Shown: positions 25,471 to 45,901, counted from the first letter of the stretch. The stretch: DNA of 64,000 nucleotides from an uncultured Gammaproteobacteria bacterium (GCA_964442455.1 CAYTZB010000001.1:85910-149909); one strand, 5' to 3'. A program made the numbers and translations. Notes: generated by a model not told the origin, from the letters alone.

Positions 25471-25538
25471 TTATAACAGCATTCAAGAAAACTCCCGACT
25501 TTTAGTCGGGTGATGAATTGAACGCTGATATGTCATAA
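25471..25538 (+). mobile_element. MITE-like hairpin element, short form, copy 2 (abuts the ftsA start codon)
   Basis: 68 bp, TTATAACAGC...GATATGTCATAA. It equals the long form minus the segment between two ATGTCAT direct repeats. Confidence 0.7.
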
Positions 25539-25541
25539 GTT

Positions 25542-26810
25542 ATGGCTAAAGGAAAAGTTATTGCCGGAATAGATATTGGTTCTTCCAAAGTTGCGACCGT
25601 CATAGGCAGTGCAAATCCAGAGGAAGAAGTACTACAAGTTTTGGGAGTGGCGTCTGTTCCTGCTCCGCCTGATGGAATTAAGAAGGGGCAAATTGTTGAT
25701 ATTGAGAAAGCCTCTGGGGCGGTTGTAGCTTCGGTTGAGAAAGCAGAACGGATGGCGGGGTTTGCACTCGATAACGTCGTCGTTGTTATTAATGGTGGAC
25801 ATATTCAGGGTCAAAACTCTCATGGGGTTGTTGCAATATCCTCCCCGGAGGGAGAGATAGAAGGAAGTGATGTTGAGCGGGTCATTGATGCCGCGCGTGC
25901 GATATCTCTTCCAGCTGGTCGCGAAGTTATTCATGTGCTCCCTTGTGAGTTTATTGTAGATGGGGAGAAAGGGATAAAGGATCCGGTGGGAATGAGTGGG
26001 GTGCGGCTTGAGGTAGAAGCGCATATTGTAACCGCGTCAACAACTGCCATTCGCAATTTAACCAAGTGTGTAAGTGAGGTGGGAGCGAGAATTTCCGGTG
26101 TGGTGTTCTCGGGGTTTGCCGCCGCCGCATCGGTGCTTTCTGATACCGAACGGGAACTAGGAGTCGTGTTAATTGACCTTGGAGCGGGGACGACCTCAAT
26201 TGCCGTTTTCACCGATGGCGCACTGGTTCACTCGCGAGTGCTTCCTATTGGTTCAAAAAATATTACCAATGATTTAGCTATAGGACTGCGCACCTCGCTT
26301 GAGAGTGCTGAGAAGATTAAAATTTCTCTCTCCGCAGCAAGTAAAAAAGACAAAGAGGAAGACGAGATAGACGTGTCGGGGTTGGGTGTTGATGGAGGGG
26401 AACGGACTGTGTCAAAAAGGACCCTTTCAGAGGGGATTATACGGCCTAGACTCAACGAAATTTGGAGTATGGTAGGGATGGAGCTCAAGGCCACGGGTCT
26501 TGGAGGGAGAACCCCGGCAGGAGTGGTGATTACCGGAGGGGGAGCGTTAACGGTAGGAGCGGTTGAGTCAGCACGGCGAATCTTAGCCCTTCCTGTTCGG
26601 GTGGGAATTCCCACCGGTATTTCGGGATTGGTTGACGATGTCTCAACGCCCGCATTTGCCGCAACGGTTGGGGCGGTTGCGTGGGCAGCACAAAACGTTG
26701 CCCCTCCTTCGGGTTTTCGTATTGGTCAGTTCACCCGTCCCTTCGAAAGCCTCCCTGTAAAAGGAGTGGTAGGCAAGGTGGTTGAGGTTATAAAAGGATT
26801 GCTGCCATAA
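25542..26810 (+). CDS. ftsA: Cell division protein FtsA
   Basis: Actin-like ATPase motifs GIDIGSSKV and LIDLGAGTTSIAVF, with the characteristic C-terminal region. Confidence 0.9.
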   Translation: MAKGKVIAGIDIGSSKVATVIGSANPEEEVLQVLGVASVPAPPDGIKKGQIVDIEKASGAVVASVEKAERMAGFALDNVVVVINGGHIQGQNSHGVVAISSPEGEIEGSDVERVIDAARAISLPAGREVIHVLPCEFIVDGEKGIKDPVGMSGVRLEVEAHIVTASTTAIRNLTKCVSEVGARISGVVFSGFAAAASVLSDTERELGVVLIDLGAGTTSIAVFTDGALVHSRVLPIGSKNITNDLAIGLRTSLESAEKIKISLSAASKKDKEEDEIDVSGLGVDGGERTVSKRTLSEGIIRPRLNEIWSMVGMELKATGLGGRTPAGVVITGGGALTVGAVESARRILALPVRVGIPTGISGLVDDVSTPAFAATVGAVAWAAQNVAPPSGFRIGQFTRPFESLPVKGVVGKVVEVIKGLLP

Positions 26811-26849: not shown

Positions 26850-27021
26850 GATTAGCATACGAGGAATCAAAATTTTTTACTCCGTTGTCCCCTTGAGAAC
26901 TGCTAAAAATTTATTCACCTAAAACCTGAGGATATTTCTCGACTATAGGCTCATTTTGTGCTAAAATACGCTTGAAATGGTAGAAAAAGAAATCTTTTTG
27001 GTATAATTAAGGCAAAATTTT

Positions 27022-31700: not shown

Positions 31701-34700
31701 TCAACTCACCCACCAATAGAGCTACGGAAGTAATTATCTTTGTGGGGCCAAATACAATTACTCGCTATATTCAAGGGGTTGACCGAAGCCACAGAATTGG
31801 GCAAACAGAAAAAGTTACCATTCACATACCATATGTTACTGGAGATTTGCTTGGACGAGGTGAGACCTACGACGAAGCAGTAATTAAACGACTTATGGAT
31901 GAACTGGTAGTTTTTGGAGCTGTCGTCGACGGGCGATTCTTTATGGAGCCAAAAGATATCTATCAATCAATTATTCAAACAGATAGAGCAAAACCGAGAG
32001 GTAGTGTTGAATTTACACGAGAGCATCGACAACGATCAAGAGAGAGGCGACGTGGTCCTTATACACCTCGGTTGCCCGGAGAACCAACTCCAAGAGTAAT
32101 GATAAGTGAAGATGAGGTTATCGATTTTGGATGGATGCAAAATATTCGTGAGGTTGTTACTCGTGAGAGCGAGTCTGAACAGGATATAGTGAGAATGTAT
32201 CTAGAGCAGATAGGACAATACCCACTATTTAATCCGGATAATCCAAATCACGAAAGATTGGCGTTCGATTATTTTAAAAGTGACAGAACCCTTGATGAAT
32301 TAAAGATAGATTCAGAATTTCTTTCAATGATTAATCCGCGAGATAGAGAAGATTTTGGACGTGTTCTGACTGATAGCCAAAGTATTCAAGATTTAATTAT
32401 TAACTGTAATCTCCGCTTGGTAGTTTCAGTAGCTCGTCAACGTCAAGGTCGCGGCTTACCCCTTTTGGATTTAATACAAGAAGGAACATTTGGCTTAATG
32501 CATGCGGTTGAACTCTTCGAACCCGAGCGAGGAAATAAATTTTCAACATACGCAACGTGGTGGATACGCCAAAGTATAAACAGAGCGATCATGAATTCTT
32601 CGCAGACAATCCGATTGCCAGTTCATATGTATGAAAGAATTGGTTTGGCTCGGAGATTTGCAAGAGAATTTGAAGCTACAAATGGTCGCACCCCAAAAGT
32701 GAGTGAGCTGCGCGAGTTAGTTTTAACTCAAACAAAGTTTTCCGAAAGTGAAGTTGACTCTGTAATCGAAACCATTGCTTCAGGAGTTATGCAAATGGGC
32801 ACTTTGGACTTTGAGATTGGGGAAGATGGAGAAGATACATTATATGATGTCGTTGCCGACAAGAGAATGGATGTTGAAGCAACTGTTTTGGAAGAAACAG
32901 AGGATGATGAGCTGAATACTGAGGTAAAGAGGGCTCTGAAAGAGAATTTGGATGAAAGAGAAAGAAGAATAATAGAGTTAAGATTCGGTTTGGGTGAAAC
33001 AAGAGAGAGAACTCTAGAAGAAGTCGGACAAGAATTTGGATTGACACGAGAACGTGTTAGACAGATTCAGGAAAGAAGTTTAGGCAAACTTAGTAGAGAC
33101 AAACAATTACGCGCTCGGTGGGAAGGCGATGCTCCGAGTTTTGTGTATCATACGAGTGCAGAGCAAGCAGCCATCAGGTTAGGATTATTCAATAAGAAGC
33201 AAAGTTATGTCGAGAAAGTTGTCGCAGAGTTACCTCCCCATCTTCAGAGTGTGCTTAATCAACGTATTCTCAAAGCAGCATCTTTGATAAATGGAGATGC
33301 ACAAAATGGGACTTCCGAAGTGGATCAAAGTTATCAATTTACACTTGCACGACTTGCAGTATGGGAGAAGTTAGGGACACTTTATCCAGACGATTTAACT
33401 GACTCACGGCAACGTCGTGAAATATATGGAAAAGATTTTGGGCCATATTTTGACCTATCGCTTATGAAACGGTTGTATGAGCGAAGGGATGGTAGAGTTA
33501 GACTGTTAGATAATCGAGTGTTATCGCACTTTTTTGGATTTGGCGATGGTCAGAAACCCCTCTTAAGTGTAGAGAAAGTTACTCAAGAGCTAGGAATTCC
33601 ACAGGATACAGTTACCGCGGGTCTTCATAAGGGGTTGCAGGTACTTGAAGCTCCACCAGAGAAGAAAACCAGAGCAGAAGAGCTCAGCAGAGAACACAGC
33701 ATTGTTGCACAGGCGTTTCGCAATCAAGAGATTTGGGATCAAATTCCTGATAGAGAAAAAAGCATATTAACACTCTATTTCATACGTGGTGGCGATCAAC
33801 AAGTATTAAAAGAGAATTTTTCGAGAATTTTCGGGATTTCTCTGCCTGAAGTAGATGCACGAATAAACGCTGCAGTAGAGTTAACTGAACGACTTTTAAC
33901 AGAAATTCAGGCTAAACCAGAACGTCAACGAAGGGTAACAAGAGGAGAACTTAGAGATATGGTTGAAGGATTATTGAAAGAGTATCCTTGGTTGAGCAAT
34001 AGCGAAGTAACAGAGCATCTTTCAACAAAACTAAAACAAGATTTAAGCAAAGCTCGTGTTGACCAAGCGAGGAAGAGCTTGGTTGCCCTTGAGAGAGTAG
34101 AGTCACGGCGTGGAAAATTAGATATACTTGACTCAAGAGTCGAAGCATTACTACTCCAAGGATTAAAACCCCAGCAAATTGCTGAGAGTTTGGTTCAATC
34201 AGAAAAAAGAGTTATTGCTTCTATAAGAAGATTGATTAGCACAGGAAATCTTGATACCCAACTTATTCAGTGGAGAAACGATGGCCTTTCAAAGGAAGAA
34301 ATTGCTGAAAGAATAGGAAGTTCAGCTGTTACCATAGGGAGAAGGCTCCGGGTACATGTTGAATCTGGTGCTCTACCTTTCCATCCTCGTGATCCTCGGA
34401 CAGTTGATGATTCTGGAGTTACCGAGCACGTCAGAAACCTAGACGGTATGGTTGAGTCATTGATTCTTCAAGATCCAAAAATAAAAACTAAAGAAATTAT
34501 TGCTGCATTGGAACCTACAGTAGGAAAATACATGGCGGAATTAACAATCCGGAGAGCAAAGAAGCGGCTGGTAGCTGCAGGGAGAATACCTTCTCATTTA
34601 TTTAATCTTACCCATGAGGAAGCAGTAGCTTTAGATCAACAAGTAGAAGAATTGGTAAAAAACGGAAATCTCTCTTATAAAGAGATAGCTGCTGCATTGA

Positions 34701-34951
34701 ATCAGCCAATCAGCAGAATTAGAAATTCTAAAGAAAGACTTGTCAAGACTCGCAGAATTGAGCCTAATCCAAAGTATGTTGACAAAGGAGCTAGTGCAGC
34801 TCTAGAGGAGTACTTATCAACACATCATGGTGATGAAATTAATTTATCAGAGTTTGCGCGCTCTATTGGTATTAGCCGCGAACGCGCAAGCCAACTCTAC
34901 AAGCGGTTAACCAATTCGCAGCTTAAGGAATTAATGACGCGGAGGAAGTAA
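28778..34951 (+). CDS. Giant fusion protein: N-terminal shared module + SNF2-family ATPase + complete primary-type sigma-70 factor + C-terminal array of ~8 HTH-like units
   Basis: SNF2 motifs: SDEPGTGKT (nt ~30563), [11 protein letters not shown] (~30938), [17 protein letters not shown] (~31781). Sigma motifs: region 1.2 [16 protein letters not shown] (~32182), region 2 [49 protein letters not shown], region 4 [13 protein letters not shown]...[17 protein letters not shown]. It is a single uninterrupted ORF. Confidence 0.88.
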   Translation: [2057 protein letters not shown]

Positions 34952-34995
34952 GAAAGTTGCTTTTACGCTTCTTGTAAGCTATACTACACACCGAT

Positions 34996-36351
34996 ATGGC
35001 AATAGAGAAACTTTTTTCAAGAATGAGGCAAGATGCCCTCGATAGCGCTTCTGGCCTTTCTGAAGAGCAAGCACATTTATTGCGTGAGGGAAAGGTAGAA
35101 GATGCTGAACAGAGAATGAACCAGGTGAAAATCGAGATAGCTAAAGCAAAAAAGGTTAATAGGATCGTTGCTGATATGTTGGATATTTTACGTGCAGCAG
35201 GTTTTGAACAACCTCCTGCTGAGTATCTTGAGCAAGTAGTAGCAAGAGAAGTATCAACTCCCGAACCCGTTTATGTAAAAGGGCAAAAATCGGGTCTTTT
35301 TAGTTTCCTCGCTCGATTATTTCCTTCAAAACAAGAACAAATATTTATTCCTGGACGACCCATTTCTCCTCTTAATCTTGTCGAAGAAGTTATGGGATCA
35401 AGACCAGTTGTAGAGGAGACAAGCGAAGAAGTGAAAGAGATTGGAGATATAGATAGAGAAGGAGAGGAAGTGGTAGCGGCAGTACCAACTCCTCCAATTG
35501 AAGCCAAAAGAGTGAGAGGTGATTTTGTGGAGCGCGAAGAAAAATTAGTATACGCAGCTCTTGCTGTTAATCCTAATAGAGATGGATTTCAATTTGAATC
35601 ATGGAGGAGTGTGTGGCGCCAGGCGTTTTCTGATGCCTTCGAGAATATTACCGATGAAAGAGAGCGTGACGATAAAGAAAAAAATTCGCAGATAGCCTCA
35701 TATTCTGCCCGCAGTGCTATTATTGTCAAACTTCAAAGAGTCAAAACTAATGCTCAGGACATTCCCCCTAAAGTAGCGAGTTTTCTTGAATGGGTTAAAA
35801 CTCAACCAGAATACGTTAATCTAAGTGTTGATGATATCTCCCTAATTATACAAAGACAAATAACCTTTGATGAAATTCGTCAAAAGGCAAGCCAAGCAGT
35901 AAATATCTTGCAAATAGAATCGCAACCCACAGAAGAGCAAGCGGTTTCTGGGGAACAAACTGAGTCAGTTCCACAACTGCCCTCGATTCAAGCATCAGAA
36001 AGCAGGGCAACAGAGCCACAAACGCTACAGTTAACAGGGCCAGAGCTTCACTTGCTTGCGCAGAAGTTACTTCAGGCAGCGCCAGCAGTATTAGAAAGAA
36101 CAGGAATAAGAATTCACACTGCAGATAGAGAAGAGATAGGTGGAATTATGGGGCGGCTCGCAAGTTCACCAGAAACTCTTCGTGCAAGCGAAACTTCTCT
36201 TGAAAGTCTCACACAGAAACTTGCTGCATATCTAAAAGACAAAGAAAAAGTATTTATGGAAAATGTCAGCAATGAGGATGCTCAGTATTTGATTACGTTT
36301 GTTGCGGGTATCAGTTCTGAAGACCTATTAAAAGAGTTTTTAAGTAGTTGA
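34996..36351 (+). CDS. Hypothetical acidic 451-aa protein (third gene of the ftsA-ftsZ insert)
   Basis: It has its own TTGCTT-17-TATACT promoter (34957-34985), an N-terminal coiled-coil-like segment and E/Q/S-rich linkers. No family recognised. Confidence 0.6.
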   Translation: MAIEKLFSRMRQDALDSASGLSEEQAHLLREGKVEDAEQRMNQVKIEIAKAKKVNRIVADMLDILRAAGFEQPPAEYLEQVVAREVSTPEPVYVKGQKSGLFSFLARLFPSKQEQIFIPGRPISPLNLVEEVMGSRPVVEETSEEVKEIGDIDREGEEVVAAVPTPPIEAKRVRGDFVEREEKLVYAALAVNPNRDGFQFESWRSVWRQAFSDAFENITDERERDDKEKNSQIASYSARSAIIVKLQRVKTNAQDIPPKVASFLEWVKTQPEYVNLSVDDISLIIQRQITFDEIRQKASQAVNILQIESQPTEEQAVSGEQTESVPQLPSIQASESRATEPQTLQLTGPELHLLAQKLLQAAPAVLERTGIRIHTADREEIGGIMGRLASSPETLRASETSLESLTQKLAAYLKDKEKVFMENVSNEDAQYLITFVAGISSEDLLKEFLSS

Positions 36352-36407
36352 CGCTTCTTTCCTCTCACCCAGAGATTCCCAGATGGCGATACGGCTCACT
36401 CGACCCC

Positions 36408-36436
36408 TTGACAACTCCTGAAAATTTATCCACAAT
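36408..36436 (+). promoter_or_regulatory. Candidate ftsZ promoter
   Basis: TTGACA (36408-36413), a 17-nt spacer, then CACAAT (36431-36436). The predicted ~150-nt 5'UTR contains element E4. Confidence 0.55.
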
Positions 36437-36450
36437 AGGCCACAAGTGAA

Positions 36451-36590
36451 ATTAACCTAATTAACCTAATTGCTCTAATTGATCTAAATTTTGAAGATTT
36501 GTAGTTTAAAAATTGGGATTTATTTAGAAATTAGAATAATTAGAAATAAGCAGAGCTTGTTTCTCGCAAGCTCGAAATTAGAAATTTTTA
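36451..36590. repeat. Imperfect long palindrome of CTAATT / AATTAG phased units (element E4, homolog of E1) plus an internal 7-bp hairpin
   Basis: Left arm: ATTAACCTAATTAACCTAATTGCTCTAATTGATCTAAATT. Right arm: TTTAGAAATTAGAATAATTAGAAAT...GAAATTAGAAATT. The hairpin is GAGCTTG-TTTCTCG-CAAGCTC. Confidence 0.65.
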
Positions 36591-36592
36591 AA

Positions 36593-37720
36593 ATGGCTCT
36601 TGTTAAACCAGATACCACGCGGTTGGCAAAAATTCGAGTAATTGGGGTTGGTGGCGGTGGGGGGAACGCAATTAACTCCATGATCTCCCAAGATAAGATT
36701 TCCGGAGTTGAGTTCATTGCCGTTAATACAGATGCACAAGTCCTTCTCTCAAACCTCGCGTCCACAAAAGTTCAAGTTGGTGAAAAATTGACGCGCGGGT
36801 TGGGTGTTGGGGGAAATCATGAGCTTGGGAAACAAGCAGCGGAGGAATCAAGAGAAAAAATTAAAGAACTGCTTCTTGACTCTGATATGGTATTTATTAC
36901 TGCAGGTATGGGTGGAGGGACTGGAACTGGGGCTGCACCGATTATTGCCGAGGTCGCGCGTGAGGTGGGGGCGTTGACGATTGCTATTGTTACCAAACCT
37001 TTTGCCTTTGAAGGTGCACGGCGCGCAGTAGTAGGAGAAGAGGGAATTGAAGCGCTTAAAGGAAAGGTTGATACGCTCATTATCATTCCCAATCAGCGGT
37101 TGATGGATGTCATTGACCGGAAGGTGACGCTACTTGATGCGTTCCGCCTGGCCGACTCGGTGCTCTCGCAAGGTGTACAAGGAATTTCTGAAATTATCAC
37201 CCAACCGGGACTTATTAACGTTGACTTTGCGGATGTAAAAGCAATTATGACCCAAGCAGGCTCAGCGCTTCTTGGCATTGGTACGGGAGTTGGTGAAGCG
37301 CGGGCACAAATGGCAGCACGGGCAGCAATTTCCTCTCCTCTTCTTGACTTATCAATCGAGGGTGCAAAGGGAGTGTTGTTTAATATCTCGGGTGGCCCGG
37401 ACTTGACTATGGCGGAGGTTGATGAGGCAGCGCGAATTATCGCCGAGCATTCCGATGCAGACGCAAACATTATTTTTGGTGCATCAATTGACCAACGGTT
37501 GTCCGATCAAGTACGTATTACAGTTATTGCGACCGGTTTTGATGAGGCGCGGGCACGACTTGCGCAAATAACCCAAACCGCAGTCAAACCTCAACCAACC
37601 CTTGAGTCGACAGAAGAGACTCGTGGGGAAAACGAGGAGGAAGAAAAGGCAGAAGAACCCAAGGATGATGAGTTTGGAGAACGCTTCGAAATACCAGCGT
37701 TTCTAAGACAGGGCCGCTAG
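36593..37720 (+). CDS. ftsZ: Cell division GTPase FtsZ
   Basis: GVGGGGGNAIN, tubulin signature GGGTGTGAAPIIA, NTDAQ, and the C-terminal conserved peptide FEIPAFLRQGR. ATG 36593 is preferred; the ORF-track TTG 36491 extension runs through the palindromic repeat. Confidence 0.92.
   Translation: MALVKPDTTRLAKIRVIGVGGGGGNAINSMISQDKISGVEFIAVNTDAQVLLSNLASTKVQVGEKLTRGLGVGGNHELGKQAAEESREKIKELLLDSDMVFITAGMGGGTGTGAAPIIAEVAREVGALTIAIVTKPFAFEGARRAVVGEEGIEALKGKVDTLIIIPNQRLMDVIDRKVTLLDAFRLADSVLSQGVQGISEIITQPGLINVDFADVKAIMTQAGSALLGIGTGVGEARAQMAARAAISSPLLDLSIEGAKGVLFNISGGPDLTMAEVDEAARIIAEHSDADANIIFGASIDQRLSDQVRITVIATGFDEARARLAQITQTAVKPQPTLESTEETRGENEEEEKAEEPKDDEFGERFEIPAFLRQGR
37669..37707 (+). repeat. Direct repeat copy 1 (last 39 nt of the ftsZ body before its final 13 nt)
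   Basis: TGAGTTTGGAGAACGCTTCGAAATACCAGCGTTTCTAAG is identical to 40512-40550. Confidence 0.9.
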
Positions 37721-37781
37721 CTTCTAGGATAAAACCTATAATATTTCTTCTACTCTTTAGTTGATATGGTATACTATCGGC

Positions 37782-40514
37782 ATGATTGCAACAACCGAAA
37801 GAGCTATACCAATAGGATTGACTGGCGATATCTCAAAGGATGGAATTCTTTCTCCAGGAACACAAATAGAGCTTGATCGTCTCCAAACTAATGCGGCTGA
37901 TGCTTGCATGGAATATCTAGATAGAATGGCACCAGATGCACCATTTCCTCTAGTTTTTATGGCAACTGGCGTCGGTAAGGGAAAAATTATTCACGAACTG
38001 ATTAAAAGGCAAAAAGCTCGAAAACAAGACTCGAAGATTTTGTTAGTTACAGGTACAAAAATTGTTTTAGTTGATCAGACTGATCAAGCTTTAACTGCTT
38101 ATCAGCAAGAACAAAATGATTTTGATATGGATGAGGATCTTGAACTGGACCAGATGGATTTTGAAAAAGAAGCGTTTGGAGAATACACATTTGATAAGTA
38201 TGGTAATCCGGATGTGGATGTTCAACTGGCAACAATTCAAAGAATTCAAAGGCAGCATAAAGAGGGGAAACTTAATGCGAATGATTTCGATCTACTAATA
38301 GTAGATGAAGTACATAATGTAGGAACCCAGAATAGGTTTAATGCAATTGATAACTTTCAAAGGGTTGTTGGTTTTACTGCTACTCCATATCGCTACACTG
38401 GCCCAATGAAAACACCACAAAGTTATGGATTTGAAATAATTACTTCGCTGTCCCTTCCCGAAGCACAAGAAAGGAAAATTCTTCCGCCTCTTTATGCACT
38501 GCAGATTAATACATCAGAATTACTAAAAGACGAACAAATACCTACCACGAGAACTGGAAAGATCGATTATTCGAAACTCGAGAAAGTTCTCAAGGCACAT
38601 CCGGAATTAAGGGAATTCATTGCGAATAGAGTTGCACCAATTATCAATTTTGAAGGGAGAAGTTATAAAACTGTTGTAACTGTTAACTTTGTGTGGGAAG
38701 CCCTGGAACTTGCCTGGTTATTTAGGGATAAAGGAATTAAGGTTGGTTTAGCAGTTAATCAATATGCCGCAAAGAATATTGATACCAAAGAAATACCAGC
38801 ATTGGACACGATTAGGAGATATAAACTGCCGGAAGGCGATCCAGAAAGCCTCCAGGTTTTAATTTCTCCTTATGTTATTTCGGAAGGTTTTGATGCTCCG
38901 GCAACAGAGATTTTAGTTTGGGCGTCTCCAACTGATTCATATCTGCGATACACGCAATATACTGGACGGCTGGCCAGAAGACATTTTGGTAAAGCTTATG
39001 GACTAGTTGTTGATTGTTTATACCAAACAAGCCAGTATGGTTGGACCTACAACTTTGCAATGTGGATGAAGGGATATGTACAAGAGTTAGAACCTGGACT
39101 TTTATATCTTGGCCCGATGTCAGAAATCAAAGATGTTGAAGTACTTAGACGCATACACGAGATTTCGGATAATATCCATATTCGTGAATTACAAAGGGAA
39201 GGAATACTACCTATTCAAGAAAACGACTTGCCGCTTTCACAAAATTGGATTCGACCTCTTTTCCAGGGAGATTGGCTTAGATTAACTTCTTTAATCGATG
39301 AGATTAAAGAAGAGTATAGAATCACTGGTGAGGAGGTATTTAATCAACTATTCACAACCAGGCTTAGTGGTAATCAACTTGTGCTCGTATGTACAAATAG
39401 AGATATTTTTATTCAACGGCTAATAGACAAAGGTGCTAAACCAAAGGTTGAAAAACCACGAGAGGGAGAGATTCCTTTGACTCAGATTAATCTACCCAAA
39501 CTCTTTGTTGGTAATTTTGAAGATACTTTGAGACCTATGCTTAATTCAATAATGGCGCGTATTAAAAATGAAGATCCAGAGGAATACCAGCGACTCTTTG
39601 CCAAACGAATGCAGGGTAGGGAAATCTATGTTTGCACAAATAAGGATAGACTTATTCAACTTATGGTTGAAGCTGGCGCAAAACTCAGGCCAGGGACTAA
39701 GGTAGCAAAAGAGAAAATGCAAACTAGCGATTTTGCTCTTACAGCAGATAATCTCGGAGAAACTTTTATTACTGGAAGAACAAAGAAGATAAGAGAAGTA
39801 ATAAGGAAAATAAAAGAAAGTTTGCCAGAAGGGGACTCTTTATTTACTTTTAGAGAATACAAGTATGCCGATGTTGAGGTAGTAACTGATTTCGATAGAT
39901 TTGTGCAATTAATGCTACAAACTGGAGTCAAACTCAGACCAAAAAATTTTATTCCAATTCAACCAAATGATATACAATTAAGTAGGGATTTATTAAAAAC
40001 ATTTTTAGGGCAATGGCGTGAAATTTCTACAACAGCGCAGCGAGCTAAAGAAAGACTTGAAAGACAATTCCCCGATGACTGTGATACTCTTTTTGTAGTT
40101 AGGACAACGAGAGTCCAAAATAAACCTCTTTGGATTGATGTATGTACAGACAGGTCTAAATTTATAAAAGCAATGGTAGAGGAAGGAGCTCGATTGAGAG
40201 ATCAGGCAGATATTAACCTTCTACCTATTCAAGAAAATGATATTGTTTTGAGCTTTGAATCTTTCTATTCGATTTCTACTACAAACTGGAGTAAATTAAA
40301 AGTTGTAATTAGACGAATTAAAGATAGGATAAAAGAGGAAATGCCAGAGGAATTCGAAAAGTTATTTGTAAAAAGGAAAAACCGTCGGGGGAAAAGTGAG
40401 GTCTGTACAGATAGAGGTTTATTTATTAAGTGGCTTGAAGAAGAGGGTGTTAAGCTAAGGCAAATTCCGCTAGTTGTGCGACATAGAAGTAGTAACTCTA
40501 ATCGTAACTCTTGA
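37782..40514 (+). CDS. SF2 helicase (ResIII/DEAD-like N-terminal ATPase + helicase-C) with five tandem ~84-aa C-terminal repeats
   Basis: Motif I FMATGVGKGK, motif II LLIVDEVHNV, motif III GFTATP, motif VI QYTGRLARR. TGgTATACT lies 6 nt before ATG 37782. The repeats span nt ~39204-40465. Confidence 0.85.
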   Translation: MIATTERAIPIGLTGDISKDGILSPGTQIELDRLQTNAADACMEYLDRMAPDAPFPLVFMATGVGKGKIIHELIKRQKARKQDSKILLVTGTKIVLVDQTDQALTAYQQEQNDFDMDEDLELDQMDFEKEAFGEYTFDKYGNPDVDVQLATIQRIQRQHKEGKLNANDFDLLIVDEVHNVGTQNRFNAIDNFQRVVGFTATPYRYTGPMKTPQSYGFEIITSLSLPEAQERKILPPLYALQINTSELLKDEQIPTTRTGKIDYSKLEKVLKAHPELREFIANRVAPIINFEGRSYKTVVTVNFVWEALELAWLFRDKGIKVGLAVNQYAAKNIDTKEIPALDTIRRYKLPEGDPESLQVLISPYVISEGFDAPATEILVWASPTDSYLRYTQYTGRLARRHFGKAYGLVVDCLYQTSQYGWTYNFAMWMKGYVQELEPGLLYLGPMSEIKDVEVLRRIHEISDNIHIRELQREGILPIQENDLPLSQNWIRPLFQGDWLRLTSLIDEIKEEYRITGEEVFNQLFTTRLSGNQLVLVCTNRDIFIQRLIDKGAKPKVEKPREGEIPLTQINLPKLFVGNFEDTLRPMLNSIMARIKNEDPEEYQRLFAKRMQGREIYVCTNKDRLIQLMVEAGAKLRPGTKVAKEKMQTSDFALTADNLGETFITGRTKKIREVIRKIKESLPEGDSLFTFREYKYADVEVVTDFDRFVQLMLQTGVKLRPKNFIPIQPNDIQLSRDLLKTFLGQWREISTTAQRAKERLERQFPDDCDTLFVVRTTRVQNKPLWIDVCTDRSKFIKAMVEEGARLRDQADINLLPIQENDIVLSFESFYSISTTNWSKLKVVIRRIKDRIKEEMPEEFEKLFVKRKNRRGKSEVCTDRGLFIKWLEEEGVKLRQIPLVVRHRSSNSNRNS

Positions 40515-40563
40515 GTTTGGAGAACGCTTCGAAATACCAGCGTTTCTAAGGCAAGGAAGATGA
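40512..40563 (+). pseudogene. Orphan duplicate of the ftsZ 3' end (encodes EFGERFEIPAFLRQGR-stop)
   Basis: 39 nt are identical to 37669-37707. The next 13 nt differ from the ftsZ tail at 7 positions, yet both tails translate to RQGR-stop. It is not in frame with the helicase ORF. Confidence 0.8.
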
Positions 40564-40571: not shown

Positions 40572-41147
40572 CTACCTTCTCGGGAGTATGATTGAAGTTG
40601 GCGGCTCAAGCGAAAGGTTTCCCATCTTCAAAAACATACACGCAAGTGCAAACCCATAATCATCTTTTAATGACTCGGGTACTGTTAATGCTTCTCTGAA
40701 TCTGCGTGGCCATAATACCTTTATTACTCTCTCCCCGTTTTCTCGCTTGGAACTTTCAAGACCGGCTACGACTTCTACATGAGGCAAAAGCGACAAGATA
40801 AGTTGTCGAGCCAACGGATCGCGAGTGTTAGGGAATGGTTGTCTCGGAAGTGATTCAATAATCCCATTAACCAGATTAAGTTCTTGTTTCACTTCTTCTT
40901 GTGTGGTTGCGGTGAAATCAAATTCCATAAAACGGATAGTCCCTGAAATTTCATCAAAATAGACGATATAGACACTCTGTAGATGTCTTGTCTGGTCAGG
41001 TCCTATTTGTGCTCGGGTAGGTCGGACAATTCTATGACGGAATTCTTCTGACATGTAGAGTTGTTCAAGAAGATCTGCAACACGTGCCTGATCGCTTGAT
41101 TTAAGCTGTTCTATTATTGGGGCAATACCAGTACGTTCCTGCCGCAT
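40572..41147 (-). CDS. Hypothetical protein (191 aa)
   Basis: ATG-initiated ORF divergent from 41230. No family recognised. Confidence 0.5.
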   Translation of the reverse strand: MRQERTGIAPIIEQLKSSDQARVADLLEQLYMSEEFRHRIVRPTRAQIGPDQTRHLQSVYIVYFDEISGTIRFMEFDFTATTQEEVKQELNLVNGIIESLPRQPFPNTRDPLARQLILSLLPHVEVVAGLESSKRENGERVIKVLWPRRFREALTVPESLKDDYGFALACMFLKMGNLSLEPPTSIILPRR

Positions 41148-41229
41148 ATAGGGTGTCAGTATAGCACTTGCCCGATACCTCCTTCAATTTCTGTCCGAGT
41201 TTTAGTATAATACCTCGAGAAGAACAAGT

Positions 41230-41883
41230 ATGAGACCAGAACAGGGAAGGGGTATTACTCCTTCACAAATTATTACACAAGCAGAGATGACGACGTTGCT
41301 ATCCGAGAGAAGTGGACATCCCTTTTCTCTGTTGCGAACGCGTGCACTCGCACTTAATTATGTCGGGAGGGAAGCGGTTAATTCGGTATTAGATAGGTTG
41401 GGCACAAGAGGGAATATAATTGCAGCAATTTCACCAGATACTCGTTTCTATGCACGGCGATTACAAGGAACACAACAAGAGCAGATATTTGACGAAGGAG
41501 TTGGGTGTATTATTCTTGGAACAACCATTCTTTCTCTTGAAGATGCTATTTTAGACTGGGAGTGGAAGGACAAACTGCTTGAGGATAATTTCAACCGCGT
41601 GGTTAGTGGTACTCCTCTGCCAAAACTGCCTTTAGAAGCGATTGTCCGAAAAACTCCGGCAAATAAAAGAGATATATCTCCCAAACAAGTCTTCGATCGG
41701 ATATTACGGGAGGCGGCGCGCGATACAAGTTTTCAAGGATTTTTTACGTCCGAAGGCATGGAAGTTAACCCTCCGGCGGTGGTTAGTACGTTCCTTCGTG
41801 CGAATGAACGGTCAGTCAGAGCAGCATTACTTCTCTATCGTGAAGTCGTTGCTGCGGGTTTAAAGCAGCATCTTCAATTTTGA
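41230..41883 (+). CDS. Hypothetical protein (217 aa)
   Basis: ATG-initiated ORF preceded by TAGTATAAT. No family recognised. Confidence 0.5.
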   Translation: MRPEQGRGITPSQIITQAEMTTLLSERSGHPFSLLRTRALALNYVGREAVNSVLDRLGTRGNIIAAISPDTRFYARRLQGTQQEQIFDEGVGCIILGTTILSLEDAILDWEWKDKLLEDNFNRVVSGTPLPKLPLEAIVRKTPANKRDISPKQVFDRILREAARDTSFQGFFTSEGMEVNPPAVVSTFLRANERSVRAALLLYREVVAAGLKQHLQF

Positions 41884-41907: not shown

Positions 41908-44877
41908 ATGGCAAAGCGAACAGAAGGACCTTTCTTTAAGCCGGTATCCTCTCACCCTGACTTTCCAAAGATGGAGAAGGAGCTGCTTTCCCATTGGTAT
42001 AGAGCGGGAATTGTCAAGAAATATCTCACAAAAAATAATAAAAGCAGAAAACTGTTTCGTTTCTTAGACGGGCCAATTACCGCCAACAATCCCATGGGAG
42101 TTCATCATGCGTGGGGACGAACGTACAAAGACCTATGGCAACGCTATAAAAATATGCAAGGGTATAGGCAGCGGTTTCAAAACGGATTTGACGCGCAAGG
42201 ATTGTGGGTTGAGGTGAATGTGGAGCGGGAGTTGAAACTTAAAAGTAAACACGATATTGAGAATTTGGTCCCAGGGGACAAATTCCGCTCTATTGCCCGC
42301 TTTGTTGAGGCGTGTAAAGAAAGAGTGAACCACTTTGTCAAAGTCCAAACCTTGCAATCAAAACGCCTGGGATATTTTATGGATTGGGATAACTCATACA
42401 TTACATACTCCCCCGAGAACAACTATATGATTTGGAACTTCTTGAAAAGGTGTCATGAGCGGGGTTTAGTTTATGAGGGGTTGGATGCGGTGCCGTGGTG
42501 TCCGAGATGTGCGACTGCCATATCAAACCACGAGATTTTGACCGAAGGGTATCGGGAACTTACCCATACCGCAGTCACGCTCAAATATCCTATTGCAGGC
42601 AGAGTTAGGGAGTATTTGCTGGTGTGGACTACCACACCATGGACCCTTCCCGCAAACGTGGCAATTGCGGTAAATCCGAAGATTATTTATAGCAGAGTGA
42701 AAGTTGGGCGAGACCTGCCTGCGCAGGCAGGTATCTACTATATTGCACGTGATAGGATAGTGCCGGTTCTTGGAAGAGATGTAGAAGTGCTCGAGGAATT
42801 AACTGGCGACCGACTGCTCAATATTTCTTATAAAGGTCCTTTTGATAACTTACCTGCAGTAGATAGTGCTCGGCGCGAAAACCCACGCACATTTCATAAA
42901 ACAATTGATGGGGGAGAGCTGGTAACAAGTGAGGAGGGGACAGGACTCGTACACATTGCGCCAGGTGCCGGTCATGAGGATTTTGTGCTCGGCCGCAAAT
43001 TCGAACTTCCCACAATTATGGTTATCGATGAGCAGGCGCATTTTATAGACGGATTTGCCTTTCTCACCGGTCGCCGAGCAGCGGACGCCCGTCCGATAAT
43101 TAACTATTTAAAGAAAGAAAAACCCGAAGGTTCAAAAATGGGGTGGTTGGTGAAGCAGGAGGAGTATTCACATCGCTACCCTGTATGCTGGAGATGCGAG
43201 ACGGAACTTGTATTTCGGGCAGTACCTGAATGGTATATTGCAATGGATCCAATTCGCGAAAAAATGGCAGAAATGGCGAAGAAGATTACTTGGATTCCTG
43301 AATTTGCTAAAGAAAGGGAGCTTGACTGGATTCGCAATATGGGTGATTGGCTGATTTCAAAGAAGCGATATTGGGGTCTTGCGTTGCCTATTTGGAGATG
43401 CAGCGCGTGTGGGTGGTTTACGGTAATAGCAGGGAAAGAGGAATTAAAAGAGAGAGCAGTTGAAGGTTGGGAAAAGTTTTCAGGACATTCCCCTCACCGA
43501 CCCTGGATTGATGAGGTAAAAGTCACTTGTGAGCGGTGTAGTGAGCGGGCTTCCCGCATTCCTGATGTCGGCAATCCATGGCTTGACGCTGGTATTGTGC
43601 CATTTTCAACCCTAATAGATCCGAGGTCTAAGAAAGTTTCATACATGACGGACAAGAAATATTGGCAAGAGTGGTTTCCGGCGGACTTTATTACTGAAAG
43701 TTTTCCGGGCCAGTTTAAAGGTTGGTTTTATAGTCTTTTGGCAATGAGCGCGGTACTGGAAAACGTTCAACCTTTTAAAACGGTGCTTGGGTTTGCGACC
43801 TTGTTTGGTGAGGATGGACGACCAATGCACAAAAGTTGGGGAAATGCCGTCGAATTCGGGGAGGGGGCAGACAAAATTGGAGTTGATGTGATGCGCTGGA
43901 TGTACGCAAAAGCCTCCCCGGCCCAAAACCTATTGTTCGGCTACACACTGGCTGATGAGACTCGCAGGAATTTCCACCTCCCACTGTGGAATGTATACAA
44001 CTTTTTTGTAACATATGCTAACTTCGACAAATGGTCTCCGAGGGGGGCACGAGTACCAAAGGTACCACGAGTATCAAGCATTTTAGATAAATGGATTCTG
44101 GCACGGCTCAAAGAGATGGCGTACAATGTTGGGCAGTCTCTTGATAAATATGATGCTCAAACAGCATCAAGTGAAATAGAAAGATTTGTTGATGATTTAT
44201 CGACGTGGTATATCAGGCGTTCTCGTTCACGAGTAGGGCCAAGCAATACCGATACAACGGATAAAGAAGAGTTTTATCCTACGACTTATTTTGTATTGGT
44301 GACGCTTTCCCAACTTCTTGCACCCTTTTTGCCGTATTTGTCCGAGTTTATCTTTACTTACCTGACCCATGAAGAATCGGTACATTTGACACAATGGCCC
44401 GACACTCCCGCACCTGATACGCGGGAGATTGAACTTATTGCTACAATGCACGAGCTGCGAGAAGCGGCCCAAGTAGGACACGCTATGAGAAAAACTGCGG
44501 GCATCAAAGTGCGCCAACCATTAAATCGTGCCACAGTCGGCGCACCGAGTAAATCTCCCACACGTCCCTTTCTAACTCTTCTGGGAGAAGAGTTGAATGT
44601 TAAAGAAGTTGTTTGGAAAAAGAAACGGGTACAAAAAGCGGTTGTAACTCTCAATACACGTATTACTCCAGTTCTGGTTGAGGAGGGAGAGGCACGAGAA
44701 TTGGTGCGCAGAATTCAAGAGGAGCGGCGACGGCTTGGTTTGGGTCTAACTGAGCGCGTGCGCGTCACTGTACCTCACATACCGACGGACAAAAAGCTTT
44801 TTAATTGGATAAAAGCGAAAACGCTGGCGCAAGATTTAAGTCAGGGAGACGAATTTATTGTTACAAAAATGGAATGA
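41908..44877 (+). CDS. ileS: Isoleucine--tRNA ligase
   Basis: Class I signature region GPITANNPMGVHHAWGRT (HIGH-variant), WTTTPWTLPANVAIAVNP (IleRS editing-domain hallmark), the KMSKS-variant PMHKSWGN, and Zn-like CxxC pairs. Confidence 0.85.
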   Translation: MAKRTEGPFFKPVSSHPDFPKMEKELLSHWYRAGIVKKYLTKNNKSRKLFRFLDGPITANNPMGVHHAWGRTYKDLWQRYKNMQGYRQRFQNGFDAQGLWVEVNVERELKLKSKHDIENLVPGDKFRSIARFVEACKERVNHFVKVQTLQSKRLGYFMDWDNSYITYSPENNYMIWNFLKRCHERGLVYEGLDAVPWCPRCATAISNHEILTEGYRELTHTAVTLKYPIAGRVREYLLVWTTTPWTLPANVAIAVNPKIIYSRVKVGRDLPAQAGIYYIARDRIVPVLGRDVEVLEELTGDRLLNISYKGPFDNLPAVDSARRENPRTFHKTIDGGELVTSEEGTGLVHIAPGAGHEDFVLGRKFELPTIMVIDEQAHFIDGFAFLTGRRAADARPIINYLKKEKPEGSKMGWLVKQEEYSHRYPVCWRCETELVFRAVPEWYIAMDPIREKMAEMAKKITWIPEFAKERELDWIRNMGDWLISKKRYWGLALPIWRCSACGWFTVIAGKEELKERAVEGWEKFSGHSPHRPWIDEVKVTCERCSERASRIPDVGNPWLDAGIVPFSTLIDPRSKKVSYMTDKKYWQEWFPADFITESFPGQFKGWFYSLLAMSAVLENVQPFKTVLGFATLFGEDGRPMHKSWGNAVEFGEGADKIGVDVMRWMYAKASPAQNLLFGYTLADETRRNFHLPLWNVYNFFVTYANFDKWSPRGARVPKVPRVSSILDKWILARLKEMAYNVGQSLDKYDAQTASSEIERFVDDLSTWYIRRSRSRVGPSNTDTTDKEEFYPTTYFVLVTLSQLLAPFLPYLSEFIFTYLTHEESVHLTQWPDTPAPDTREIELIATMHELREAAQVGHAMRKTAGIKVRQPLNRATVGAPSKSPTRPFLTLLGEELNVKEVVWKKKRVQKAVVTLNTRITPVLVEEGEARELVRRIQEERRRLGLGLTERVRVTVPHIPTDKKLFNWIKAKTLAQDLSQGDEFIVTKME

Positions 44878-44878
44878 C

Positions 44879-45901
44879 ATGCGTATTGATGGTGCATTAT
44901 TGGGTGCGGTAATACTCCTTCTTGTAGTGGGCAATACTATTCTTCTCTCTGTTGAGCCGCGGCTTTTTCCGCTCCAATTTTTGTATATCGGTGCGGCCGT
45001 AGTTGTATTTTTCCTTGTTGCTAGAGTGGACGCTGCCGTATTGCGTGCCTTTGCACCCCTTGGGTATTGGCTAGTGATAATTTTTTTGGCAGTTACGTTA
45101 GTTATTGGAGTAATAAGTCATGGAGCAGTGAGATGGTTACCAATAGGACCTGTTACGGTGCAACCGTCTGAATTTGCAAAACCCGCTATTGCTTTAATGA
45201 CTGCGTGGCTCCTATCAGGAAATATTAAAAATAGCTTTTTAGCTTCTTTGTTGGTCAGCTTTTTAGCTTCTTTGTTGGTATTTATTCAACCAGATTTCGG
45301 AACCGCTGTGATTCTGGGTGTATCATGGTTGGGAGCTGTCTTAGCAAGCGGAGTATCGTTTAAAACTGTTTTTAGGTTTTTAATTTTTTTCATTCTTTTA
45401 ATTCCTTTAGGTTGGTTTATTCTAGCACCGTACCAGCGAGAAAGAATAACTTCATTTTTAAACCCGACGAGCGACCCCGCAGGTGCTGCGTACCAAGGAC
45501 GACAAGCAATGATTGCTGCCGGTTCGGGAGGACTCCTTGGCCGAGGGTTGGGACAGGGAAGTCAAACACAGCTTGCATTTTTACCAGCGCGCTCAACTGA
45601 CTTTGCATTCGCAAGCGTGGGAGAGGAGCTTGGATTCGTGGGGATGGCGCTCGTTTTGGTAGGATTTTTTGTGGTTTTTTTGAGGATTGTAGGGGTGTTA
45701 AGGGAAGCGCGCGAGCCGTTTGTGAAAGCTGCACTTGGTGGAATTTTTCTTTTTCTTTTCGCCCAAACAACGGTGAATATTGCCATGAATCTTGGTATGC
45801 TTCCCATCGCCGGTGTGCCGCTACCCCTTATTTCTGCCGGCGGCTCGGCGCTTGTCTCAACGATGTTAAGCTTAGGGATTGTCGTGGCTCTTCGGAAGTA
45901 G
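44879..45901 (+). CDS. rodA: SEDS-family protein RodA (second FtsW/RodA paralog)
   Basis: QPSEFAKP, QPDFGT, LPARSTDFAFASVGEELGF and PLPLISAGGSA motifs are present. It contains a 24-bp in-frame tandem duplication. Confidence 0.8.
   Translation: MRIDGALLGAVILLLVVGNTILLSVEPRLFPLQFLYIGAAVVVFFLVARVDAAVLRAFAPLGYWLVIIFLAVTLVIGVISHGAVRWLPIGPVTVQPSEFAKPAIALMTAWLLSGNIKNSFLASLLVSFLASLLVFIQPDFGTAVILGVSWLGAVLASGVSFKTVFRFLIFFILLIPLGWFILAPYQRERITSFLNPTSDPAGAAYQGRQAMIAAGSGGLLGRGLGQGSQTQLAFLPARSTDFAFASVGEELGFVGMALVLVGFFVVFLRIVGVLREAREPFVKAALGGIFLFLFAQTTVNIAMNLGMLPIAGVPLPLISAGGSALVSTMLSLGIVVALRK
45233..45280 (+). repeat. 24-bp tandem duplication inside rodA (SFLASLLV x2)
   Basis: AGCTTTTTAGCTTCTTTGTTGGTC followed by AGCTTTTTAGCTTCTTTGTTGGTA (23/24 identical). 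Confidence 0.9.

Follow-up and report, generated by a model that had tools for sequence, protein, structure and literature searches.

The 64-kb stretch of DNA analyzed here (the window) carries an intact, in-use ftsZ gene (36593–37720, plus strand; 375 aa; Pfam Tubulin 1.1e-47, FtsZ_C 6.8e-36) whose stop codon, TAG, lies at 37718–37720. Within its 3' end is a 39-nt block (37669–37707) that recurs exactly, in direct orientation, at 40512–40550, 2843 nt away start to start; no leftward extension of this match was found. The window contains only two perfect direct repeats of at least 39 nt, of which the ftsZ-tail pair is one. The bracketed DNA holds a single real ORF, a putative superfamily 2 (SF2) helicase gene (37782–40514, plus strand; 910 aa from ATG 37782, or 917 aa from TTG 37761), plus its promoter. 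An earlier interpretation made from the DNA alone (the sequence-only reading) had described such a repeat around only a promoter and a helicase gene, and its coordinates were exact; it was also right that the helicase stop codon TGA (40512–40514) is the first three bases of the downstream copy. That copy and the 13 nt that follow it form a 52-nt stranded ftsZ tail (40512–40563, plus strand), which is intergenic and out of frame with the helicase ORF; no in-frame ATG was found behind it.

The helicase 5' region (37721–37781, plus strand) has an extended −10 box, TGgTATACT (37767–37775), 6 nt ahead of the ATG. A Shine–Dalgarno sequence is absent from this region, and a strict two-hexamer promoter scan of it gave zero sites. 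With no Shine–Dalgarno sequence and a −10 box so close to the ATG, the mRNA is probably leaderless; most helicase homologues have a −10-like box 6–11 nt ahead of their ATG. The protein consists of a core (approximately aa 1–450) followed by five C-terminal units of ∼80 aa (aa 477–895, nt 39210–40466). Pfam gave ResIII/DEAD matches (ResIII, 4e-19 over aa 29–204; Helicase_C weak, 0.006), the GxGK and DEvHN motifs were invariant among 31 homologues, and we classify the predicted protein as a superfamily 2 (ResIII/DEAD-like) helicase. Across the family the C-terminal array has two to seven units, some duplicated very recently, and the unit fold gives weak winged-helix-like matches. We found no nuclease, integrase, or HUH domain in the protein, nor a homing nuclease domain (LAGLIDADG, GIY-YIG, HNH, or similar), so a free-standing homing endonuclease gene was rejected. 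The bracket lacks an integrase by ORF and domain search, as had been claimed; recombinase matches inside it were zero (Pfam, NCBIfam, and PADLOC), no transposase domain was found with Pfam, and terminal inverted repeats were absent from the insert ends (37721 and 40511). A transposon or insertion sequence was rejected for want of a transposase, inverted repeats, and a duplication of fixed length. The G+C content is 49% in ftsZ, 37% in the insert, and 42% in the whole window, confirming the reported contrast between gene and insert; it is weak as an argument for foreign origin, however, because helicase homologues elsewhere also lie up to ∼4.5 points below their own surroundings.

Past the 39-nt block, ftsZ runs on as ACAGGGCCGCTAG (37708–37720, plus strand), which completes ..RQGR and the stop codon, and the downstream copy runs on as GCAAGGAAGATGA. 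The two endings differ at seven of 13 nt, all synonymously, and the 51-nt frames of both copies, read up to the stop codon, give the same FtsZ C-terminal peptide, EFGERFEIPAFLRQGR, as stated before. When seven random substitutions were placed in the tail, the peptide remained unchanged in none of 200,000 simulations. The purely synonymous divergence and these trials together indicate that both tails evolved as real ftsZ ends, in line with the earlier proposal that FtsZ constraint had shaped them.

Comparison with related genomes suggested which tail is native. Four loci whose FtsZ is 97%–98% identical (L053–L056) have ftsZ followed by orfA, orfB (minus strand), and IleRS; the helicase is missing, and the rest of the neighborhood is that of the window. 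A more distant relative, L064, has the ftsZ-to-IleRS synteny of the window and also lacks the helicase. Parsimony therefore favors a gain in the window lineage, and the helicase is best read as an insertion behind ftsZ. Close relatives end ftsZ with AGG CAA GGT AGA TGA or AGG CAA GGG AGG TAA. The stranded tail ends with AGG CAA GGA AGA TGA and the in-use gene with AGA CAG GGC CGC TAG. The stranded tail aligns with the ftsZ 3' end of L053 (6823–6874), with one mismatch in its last 13 nt, and the natural ftsZ tail of L064, AGA CAA GGG CGA TAG, resembles the in-use ending. Since the relatives match the stranded copy and not the in-use one, we infer that the stranded tail is the resident end and that the in-use gene received its final 13 nt by import. 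The sequence-only reading had proposed both an inserted helicase and one resident plus one imported tail, and the empty sites and the relatives' endings agree with it on each point.

The window ftsZ is 92% identical to that of L053 in nucleotides and 98% in amino acids, and near its 3' end mismatches set in abruptly. The in-use gene has no mismatches to L053/L056 across 37658–37692 (35 nt), but between 37693 and the stop codon, a stretch of 28 nt, it differs from L053 at 13 positions; the switch point therefore lies inside the 39-nt block. Such a switch has the appearance of a recombination joint and not of drift. Block positions 25–39 complicate the picture: There, the stranded and in-use copies share six synonymous differences from L053/L056, which a simple reciprocal crossover does not predict. 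They need a resident tail that already differed (P ∼ 0.04 by our own calculation from the observed third-position divergence), gene conversion, or a donor from which the entire structure was imported.

Helicase homologues occur in many genomic contexts, and approximately 27 of 32 distinct homologue loci had no flanking repeat at the DNA or peptide level. The two closest homologues (L051/L052) lie upstream of ftsZ, between ftsA and ftsZ. Four other helicase loci are bracketed by duplicated tails, which belong to EF-G (L002/L028; 29/30 nt, the sole difference synonymous), a class-I W/Y-type aminoacyl-tRNA synthetase (TrpRS-like; L030), a PBP-like gene (L019), and one further gene (L065; peptide-level tails ..AQVYER and ..AQIYER, each followed by a stop). 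The suggested search for other flanked helicase copies thus succeeded, but the tails are those of other genes, which speaks against an element that specifically targets ftsZ. At L019, a PIN toxin–antitoxin pair and the helicase are set apart by three PBP-like tails. Of the 13 codons that differ, 10 are synonymous (P = 5e-5), and the third tail, which follows the helicase, contains an indel and an internal stop codon. This locus looks like an array of orphan tails from successive insertions, the presumably oldest being the most decayed.

The same scar surrounds unrelated cargo, the PIN pair of L019 included, so the helicase unit does not appear to be the self-contained mobile element first supposed. 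A Fic-gene tail brackets an EEP-nuclease pair (L005; all six differing codons synonymous, P = 5e-6), and a Mur-ligase-like tail brackets Bro-N and TIG proteins (L003). An orphaned, diverged 3' fragment lies downstream of the new DNA in the window and at L002, L003, L005, L019, L030, and L065. Perfect blocks of 25–41 nt are present in the window, L003, and L005, whereas L065 lacks one; a block of this kind at the joint would favor a homologous over an illegitimate second joint. The duplications are short and vary between loci (30–72 nt), which may reflect stability and detection limits, and the repeat cores, compared by eye at five loci, showed no common motif. The scar occurs at a higher rate at helicase genes (five of ∼33) than at neighboring genes in the same ∼0.5 Mb, and the helicase could therefore be more than passive cargo.

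The neighborhood of ftsZ has been rearranged in other ways. The resident downstream neighbor, orfB (40572–41147, minus strand), lies 8 nt from the stranded tail and is homologous to the minus-strand ORF of L053/L056 (67%–69% aa), which evolves fast between those two as well; Pfam and NCBIfam searches of orfB and orfA gave no matches. An orfA segment (41182–41880, plus strand; gene 41230–41883) has the 9-nt direct repeat CTTCAATTT at both ends (41182–41190 and 41872–41880). In L053/L056, orfA lies directly behind ftsZ, and the site of the 9-nt repeat is single-copy. A second insertion occupies the ftsA–ftsZ interval (26889–36429, plus strand; 9.6 kb, three ORFs) and is bounded by two copies of the ftsZ promoter (26889–26914 and 36404–36429; 23/26 nt). 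L056 lacks it and has a 75-nt ftsA–ftsZ spacer; the ftsZ-proximal promoter copy is identical to L056 at 37 of 37 positions. The window differs structurally from its close relatives in three places, and each of these is bounded by native direct repeats, of 52, 26, and 9 nt.

We think it probable, with moderate confidence, that the helicase arrived as cargo through integrase-free homologous recombination of the Campbell type, in which the end of the resident gene recombined with a related end on incoming DNA. The model starts from cargo already joined to a gene tail: A 2.8-kb single-gene insert, the SF2 helicase gene with its own promoter, would have been gained directly behind the ftsZ stop codon in a Microgenomates (CPR) lineage when the resident ftsZ 3' end recombined with a related ftsZ 3' segment on helicase-bearing DNA. 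The topology would be a single reciprocal crossover or, equivalently, a double crossover of a cassette that already had a tail copy on both sides. The outcome seen is a donor-type extreme end on the working ftsZ, then the cargo, then the displaced resident end as a 52-nt untranslated relic. Host recombination functions, and not an element-encoded integrase, would be the agent, with the helicase as a passenger. The surviving events would be only those anchored in a gene tail or promoter, because these leave the essential gene intact, and long duplications would disappear or be shortened. Two points count against the model: A homology of 39 nt is at the lower limit for RecA-type exchange, and neither a circle nor an excised form of the insert was seen.

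Recurrence of the scar with other target genes and other cargo argues for this model, as does the lack of an integrase or transposase in the bracket, of terminal inverted repeats, and of a common core motif. The helicase is 57%–62% identical (aa) to those of L051/L052, and the core genes MurG, FtsW, and MurD are 56%–65% identical; this equal divergence is in keeping with exchange among relatives, a precondition of homology-dependent integration. A variant would suit the helicase 3' junction. The helicase 3' end, AACTCTTGA, aligns with L051 ACCCCTTGA, where the ftsZ promoter has the aligned TGA in its −35 box; the ftsZ sequence at the joint is GATGA/TGAG (slash marking the joint), and helicase and tail share a TGA microhomology where they meet. 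A donor in which the helicase was followed by the ftsZ promoter and then ftsZ could have recombined through longer ftsZ homology, after which a TGA/TGA microhomology deletion would have removed the second ftsZ copy except its last 52 nt.

Against this homologous-recombination account, we weighed an integrative element, self-mobilizing or specifically mobilized, with the recoded gene tail as its attachment site. Site-specific activity at the 3' ends of conserved genes would come from the helicase itself, through its variable C-terminal array, or from a recombinase in trans. Tail duplications at five helicase loci, in five different genes and both orientations, are as expected of such an element, as are the raised scar rate and an insert that is always promoter plus gene and nothing more; an array of two to seven units with very recent duplicates would suit a fast-evolving recognition module, and the unit fold has winged-helix-like matches, albeit weak. 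We nonetheless judge it unlikely, given a protein with no nuclease, integrase, or HUH domain, repeat cores with no shared motif, insert ends with no inverted repeats, the same scar on brackets that hold unrelated cargo and no helicase, the lack of a repeat at most homologues, and a family absent from viral contigs.

Another rival dispenses with horizontal transfer and invokes local rearrangement alone. It would begin from an ancestor arranged like L051/L052, with the helicase first, then the ftsZ promoter and ftsZ; one tandem duplication plus two deletions would then place a full ftsZ ahead of the helicase and leave the last 52 nt of the old copy behind it. The position of the closest homologues directly upstream of ftsZ fits, as do the L051 alignment reaching the TGA of the −35 box, the TGA microhomology, and a helicase divergence equal to that of core genes. 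Duplicates start out identical, however, and seven synonymous differences in 13 nt beside 39 identical nt are unexpected. The required ancestral order is also unparsimonious, since L053, L056, and L064 share the downstream synteny and have the helicase on neither side of ftsZ; nor does this route explain why such a scar occurs at other genes and with the orientation reversed. We consider this route quite improbable.

There is very little chance that the structure is an assembly artifact, in which a free 2.8-kb circle or second-strain DNA was threaded into ftsZ via the shared 39-mer. The repeat does exceed k = 31, and the Logan graph breaks there: An independent unitig (L001; SRR12113430, 2864 nt) matches window 37678–40541 with zero mismatches and ends 30 nt inside each repeat copy. 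It covers the bracket interior and those 30 nt, with the two outer junctions outside it, and is compatible with an integrated or a circular form of the segment. Its break points are the result of a k = 31 graph with all four repeat arms present. But 39 nt is far below read length and is spanned by ordinary assemblers; a Logan unitig of the same sequence occurs in two samples, with branch points as expected for the integrated form; equivalent structures are present in other genomes, which were assembled independently; and a circular element would itself have to carry an ftsZ tail. Least credible of all is a long target-site duplication from a transposition-like staggered cut with later drift of the unused copy, which would explain native-sequence direct repeats around the insert and an insertion point at the stop codon but stands contradicted by the polarity of the tail differences (the copy that departs from relatives is the one in use, and not the relic), by changes that drift would not keep purely synonymous or restrict to the last 13 of 52 nt, by a length that is not fixed across loci, and by the failure to find a transposase or terminal inverted repeats.

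Several known systems share parts of this pattern. IMEX elements are integrase-less, use host XerCD at dif, and have direct repeats at their ends, each a dif-like site that carries a conserved motif. Here the repeat cores are instead unrelated coding sequences, and, with no motif in common among them by eye (five loci), an IMEX element was rejected. In Neisseria, minimal mobile elements are gene slots of variable content that lie between conserved genes; they are exchanged when transformation is followed by homologous recombination, through a double crossover in both flanking genes, and no duplication is left. Similarly, the ftsA–ftsZ and ftsZ–IleRS intervals carry different genes across relatives, and movement would need host recombination only; the helicase insertion differs in duplicating one flank. 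The term minimal mobile elements appears in PMC3787668. The integrase-less microcin H47 island of Escherichia coli has short direct repeats and RecA-independent excision between them, according to the abstracts (PMC3191183, PMC5426353). It, too, is described there as small, with short direct repeats at its ends and no site-specific recombinase encoded, but these abstracts say nothing of repeats that regenerate gene ends, of synonymous recoding, or of a multilocus pattern.

The closest parallels lie in two other systems. According to the account in PMC13626634 (citing Hill et al. 1989), e14 (and phage 21) in E. coli icd leaves the icdC 3' pseudogene, supplies a mostly synonymous substitute gene end, and restores the gene by recombination between the ends. 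As in that account, the window has an insertion in the 3' end of a housekeeping gene, a substitute end, and a short resident relic on the far side; a flanking direct repeat and empty sites were found as well. The integrative-element logic at gene 3' ends invoked by the sequence-only reading therefore holds for the substitute end and the empty site and fails on the recombinase: No tyrosine or serine recombinase gene was found in the bracket, and orfA and orfB had no matches. Whereas e14 is 15 kb long, with its own integrase/excisionase and a defined att core, the helicase insert consists of one gene and encodes no recombinase, and this type of scar recurs at the ends of many unrelated genes. 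In Rhs loci and V. cholerae T6SS effector–immunity arrays, C-terminal displacement by homology-facilitated illegitimate recombination pushes the old 3' part downstream as an orphan that keeps a conserved piece, and repeated events build arrays (PMC5361080). There, as proposed here, incoming DNA anchors in a conserved stretch and brings a new 3' part plus cargo, and the L019 array is comparable; the swapped 3' part, however, is a functional variable toxin tip that changes the protein, whereas synonymous recoding leaves the FtsZ end unaltered and the cargo forms a gene of its own. By analogy with e14/icd and Rhs C-terminal displacement, the logic at ftsZ would be a known one, operating here in an integrase-free form with a helicase as its cargo.

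The ftsZ gene (36593–37720, with Tubulin and FtsZ_C domains) is followed by an SF2 helicase gene (37782–40514; 910 aa, with ResIII/DEAD helicase motifs), and a perfect 39-nt direct repeat lies across the 3' ends of the two genes (37669–37707 and 40512–40550). Perfect repeats of at least this size number two in total in the 64-kb window. The repeat has no leftward extension, the first triplet of its downstream copy is the helicase TGA, and from each copy a further 13 nt lead to a stop codon (ACAGGGCCGCTAG and GCAAGGAAGATGA). We refer to the upstream copy, which ends the working ftsZ, as the in-use copy, and to the downstream 52-nt relic as the stranded copy. Both frames translate to EFGERFEIPAFLRQGR and a stop; the tails differ at seven sites, every one synonymous, and none of 200,000 simulated random placements of seven substitutions kept the peptide. 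The exact repeat and its synonymous tails, as described by the sequence-only reading, are thus confirmed. In an independent run (SRR12113430), one Logan unitig matches 37678–40541 exactly and ends 30 nt inside each repeat copy, as expected with all four repeat arms present in the k=31 graph. An exact look-up of the 375-aa FtsZ gave no record, since the public gene call begins at an upstream TTG.

Between the repeats there was no second credible ORF, no Rfam family, and no inverted repeat at the segment ends, and the Rfam scan of the window gave four tRNAs only, with no match to the repeat. The bracketed segment holds no recombinase, which bears out the earlier claim that it carries no integrase. 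We discount the low G+C of the insert as a sign of foreign origin because, in other genomes as well, members of the helicase family are richer in A+T than the DNA around them.

Direction was assigned by comparison with four close relatives (L053–L056; FtsZ 97%–98% identical), in which ftsZ is followed by orfA (+), orfB (−), IleRS, and FtsW, and from all four of which the helicase is absent. The extreme ftsZ end of these relatives aligns with the stranded copy: The last five codons are AGG CAA GGT AGA TGA in L053, AGG CAA GGG AGG TAA in L056, and AGG CAA GGA AGA TGA in the stranded copy, matching closely enough to identify the latter as the resident tail. The in-use ending (AGA CAG GGC CGC TAG) is unlike those of the close relatives but close to the ftsZ tail that occurs naturally in a more distant genome (L064, 81% FtsZ identity; AGA CAA GGG CGA TAG). 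Over 37658–37692 the in-use ftsZ has no mismatches to L053 or L056, and in the final 28 nt it has 13 mismatches to L053; read from the alignment, this abrupt switch inside the identical block marks a putative recombination joint. Six of the 13 differences (block positions 25–39) are common to the stranded copy too, and may reflect a resident tail that already differed (ATACCAGCGTTTCTAAG), conversion, or import of the whole structure from a donor already having it. The tail that a donor ftsZ would carry is GCGTTTCTAAGACAGGGCCGCTAG joined to CTTCTAGGATAAAACC. The empty sites and the polarity of the tails support the proposed insertion with a regenerated ftsZ tail. We rejected duplication of a target site followed by drift, given that polarity and the fact that the differences are synonymous.

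Helicase homologues (n = 89) were all from Patescibacteria, mostly Microgenomates, with identities of 36%–61% besides the self-hit. We retrieved ~32 distinct helicase loci from genome and metagenome collections, and most of them had no flanking repeat at the DNA or peptide level. Four loci besides the window did have one. At the Daviesbacteria locus (L002/L028), a 30-nt repeat (29/30) comprises the last nine codons and stop of a convergent EF-G gene, its sole mismatch being synonymous; at L030, the repeat (~57 nt) is the tail of a gene, likewise convergent, for a TrpRS-like class-I W/Y-type aminoacyl-tRNA synthetase; at L019, tails of a PBP-like gene lie at either side of the helicase; and at L065, the copies are visible at the peptide level, ending in SDFTTTAQVYER and LTFDTKAQIYER, each followed by a stop.

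The two closest homologues, L051 (61%) and L052 (53%), are located upstream of ftsZ, with ftsA on their other side, and have no repeat. Amino acid identity to the window at these two loci is 57%–62% for the helicase and 56%–65% for MurG, FtsW, and MurD; helicase divergence equals core-gene divergence, so the gene circulates within the clade and did not come from far away. The final nine bases of the window helicase (AACTCTTGA) align with ACCCCTTGA of L051, where the helicase stop TGA forms part of TTGACA, the −35 hexamer in the conserved promoter of ftsZ (L051 3355–3400), so that the helicase ORF overlaps the promoter of the following gene. The ftsZ sequence at the joint is GATGA/TGAG. This arrangement hints that the helicase may once have stood directly before an ftsZ gene, with the joint at the TGA microhomology. 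A −10 box lies 6–11 nt ahead of the ATG in most homologues, suggesting that helicase mRNAs may be leaderless.

The helicase protein contains no nuclease or recombinase domain. We rejected a viral origin on the IMG/VR result: The family had only generic SF2 matches there (23%–26% identity), with no viral relatives, and the foreign-tail 24-mer is absent from it. We likewise rejected a frameshift that would fuse the helicase with the FtsZ peptide of the stranded copy: The sequence offers no slippery site, and at other loci the relic is on the opposite strand.

The scar, a short duplicated gene end with copies of different lineages, was found at the window locus and six similar loci, and it is not confined to the helicase. 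L005 has the final 17 codons of a Fic-domain gene on both sides (1873–1923 and 3674–3724) of a 1.8-kb gene pair, one unknown gene and one EEP-family nuclease; the six codons that differ between the copies are all synonymous (P = 5e-6). In L003, the tail of a Mur-ligase-like gene contains a 25-nt block (989–1013) that is repeated perfectly 4.2 kb downstream (5158–5182), the two copies bracketing a TIG-domain 1098-aa protein and a Bro-N protein that matches the PADLOC candidate PDC-S13 at 4.5e-105; after the block, a diverged tail continues in the same frame, and the tails stop at different lengths. Three PBP-like tails in L019 (1–3700) separate an RHH-like/PIN toxin–antitoxin pair and a helicase cassette. 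The first two, around the toxin–antitoxin pair, have 10 synonymous codons out of 13 that differ (P = 5e-5), and the third, behind the helicase, is decayed, with an internal stop and an indel; together they form an ordered array of successive insertions. In the five cases with tails aligning to stop codons, the duplication ends at the anchor gene's stop. By eye, the repeat cores of five loci share no common motif, and a screen for tail duplications in ~100 kb of later-fetched loci (~86 kb ftsZ-centered plus two viral contigs) gave no further cases. The idea of a helicase element that targets ftsZ is not supported, given the other anchors, the unrelated cargo, and the many homologues with no repeat. 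Separately, intergenic direct repeats in L033 (391–508 and 3143–3202; 30 nt at 97% and 27–29 nt perfect) flank a 2.7-kb multi-gene segment between a PBP-like gene tail and a helicase homologue.

Set against L053 and L056, the window shows two further putative events of the same kind as the helicase insertion. A 9.6-kb insertion (26889–36429) between ftsA (25542–26810) and ftsZ is absent from L056 and has a copy of the ftsZ promoter at each end (26889–26914 and 36404–36429; 23/26 nt), of which the ftsZ-adjacent copy is identical to that of L056. Of its three ORFs, those of 590 and 451 aa had no Pfam, NCBIfam, or PADLOC match; the other, of 2057 aa (28778–34951, +), fuses an SNF2/ResIII helicase (aa ∼578–1008) to sigma-70 regions 1.2, 2, 3, and 4 (aa ∼1136–1438), with a further HTH near aa 1960. 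The other event concerns orfA (41230–41883), which in the window lies between orfB and IleRS, with a 9-nt repeat (CTTCAATTT) at 41182–41190 and 41872–41880. In L053 and L056 this site is single-copy and orfA is directly behind ftsZ; given this different position, orfA, too, behaves like a mobile unit of one gene. At another place in the window, a duplicated promoter-bearing intergenic region of ~145 nt (10743–10884 and 11741–11885; core of 41 nt perfect, CACCTTCGAGGTG...) lies on both sides of a gene (10883–11701) for a 272-aa protein of unknown function; this duplication looks like an insertion scar of the same kind, anchored in a promoter region.

The ftsA–ftsZ and ftsZ–IleRS intervals of relatives hold a HepT/MNT pair, a 555-aa ORF, a sortase, and a Y1 transposase. 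The last, of IS200/IS605 type, is encoded in L064 (7170–7832, −), where it occupies the ftsZ–IleRS slot in place of orfA/orfB or the helicase. We considered orfB (−) as a hidden recombinase and rejected it: It had no Pfam, NCBIfam, or PADLOC match and is dissimilar to this transposase in the same slot. Import of orfB along with the helicase was also rejected, as its low identity to relatives scales with its own high rate of change between L053 and L056.

Several smaller features of the region were recorded. The sigma-like neighbor in distant helicase loci (L010–L012) matches aa 1202–1438 of the 2057-aa ORF. The ftsZ 5' untranslated region (36440–36592) is ~140 nt longer than that of L056, and the extra sequence is AT-rich, with reiterated AATTAACCTAATT-like motifs that are present at 13808–13846 too. 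A 70-nt element with an internal hairpin and no Rfam family match occurs three times (14752–14821, 25467–25536, and 58017–58086); two copies are 97% alike, one finishes 5 nt before the ftsA start, and a second shared piece lies at 14834–14869 and 58098–58133. The FtsW/RodA-family gene (44858–45901) contains a perfect 23-nt tandem duplication (45233–45279; 24 nt start to start), an in-frame 8-codon repeat.

In the window, then, a helicase was gained behind ftsZ, leaving a chimeric in-use tail and a displaced resident tail; the outcome recurs with other anchors, orientations, and cargo, and the bracket is recombinase-free. We infer that two ftsZ alleles recombined by homologous exchange, with the joint inside or beside the short identical block. 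A topology that duplicates the homology would be produced by Campbell-type integration of a circle or by a double crossover of a cassette with two tail copies. In a variant, longer ftsZ homology would be followed by microhomology deletion of the redundant copy, which would fit the helicase 3' joint. Tail- or promoter-anchored events would survive because the essential gene stays whole. For the loci with no identical block (L065 and L019), a homology-facilitated illegitimate joint would fit as well, and there may be more than one integration route.

Most probably, then, the helicase is cargo, brought in by a general route of recombination that needs no integrase and whose scar can be recognized. 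A more speculative reading, which we consider quite improbable, is that CPR/Microgenomates genomes carry "tail-anchored cassettes," an undescribed class that is integrase-free and mostly consists of single genes. Their portable attachment arm would be the synonymously recoded last 10–25 codons of a conserved host gene, cassettes would stack into arrays behind that gene, and the SF2 helicase, with its rapidly varying array of 2–7 winged-helix-like units, would be an active partner, and not just cargo, that recognizes tails or promotes recombination.

The general route has partial counterparts in known systems. The elements e14 and phage 21 integrate in icd and leave an icdC relic, following a gene-end regeneration logic (PMC13626634); the present locus shares this logic, but the integrase that defines that family was sought in the bracketed segment and is absent. 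Homology-facilitated illegitimate recombination is the explanation that has been given for C-terminal displacement in Rhs/T6SS loci (PMC5361080); the stacked orphans are alike, whereas the protein end is conserved at the present loci and replaced in Rhs/T6SS. Integrase-less islands with direct repeats exist, such as H47 (PMC3191183, PMC5426353), and the variable gene slots of the window and its relatives recall the minimal mobile elements of Neisseria (PMC3787668). Xer/dif elements are excluded because the repeats at the present loci have no common site. Our literature search found no account of such a scar for CPR bacteria.

How CPR bacteria, with their small genomes, acquire genes is poorly understood. 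The scar identifies the incoming DNA and the resident end, with no integrase within the insert. If common, it would provide a simple signature by which recent acquisitions could be recognized from the sequence of metagenome-assembled genomes and would allow successive insertions to be dated and ordered, as in the L019 array. It would also be evidence that, at the ends of conserved genes, very short stretches of homology suffice to capture accessory and defense-like genes beside essential genes such as ftsZ. Its value is chiefly as a marker from which gene gain by CPR bacteria can be read.
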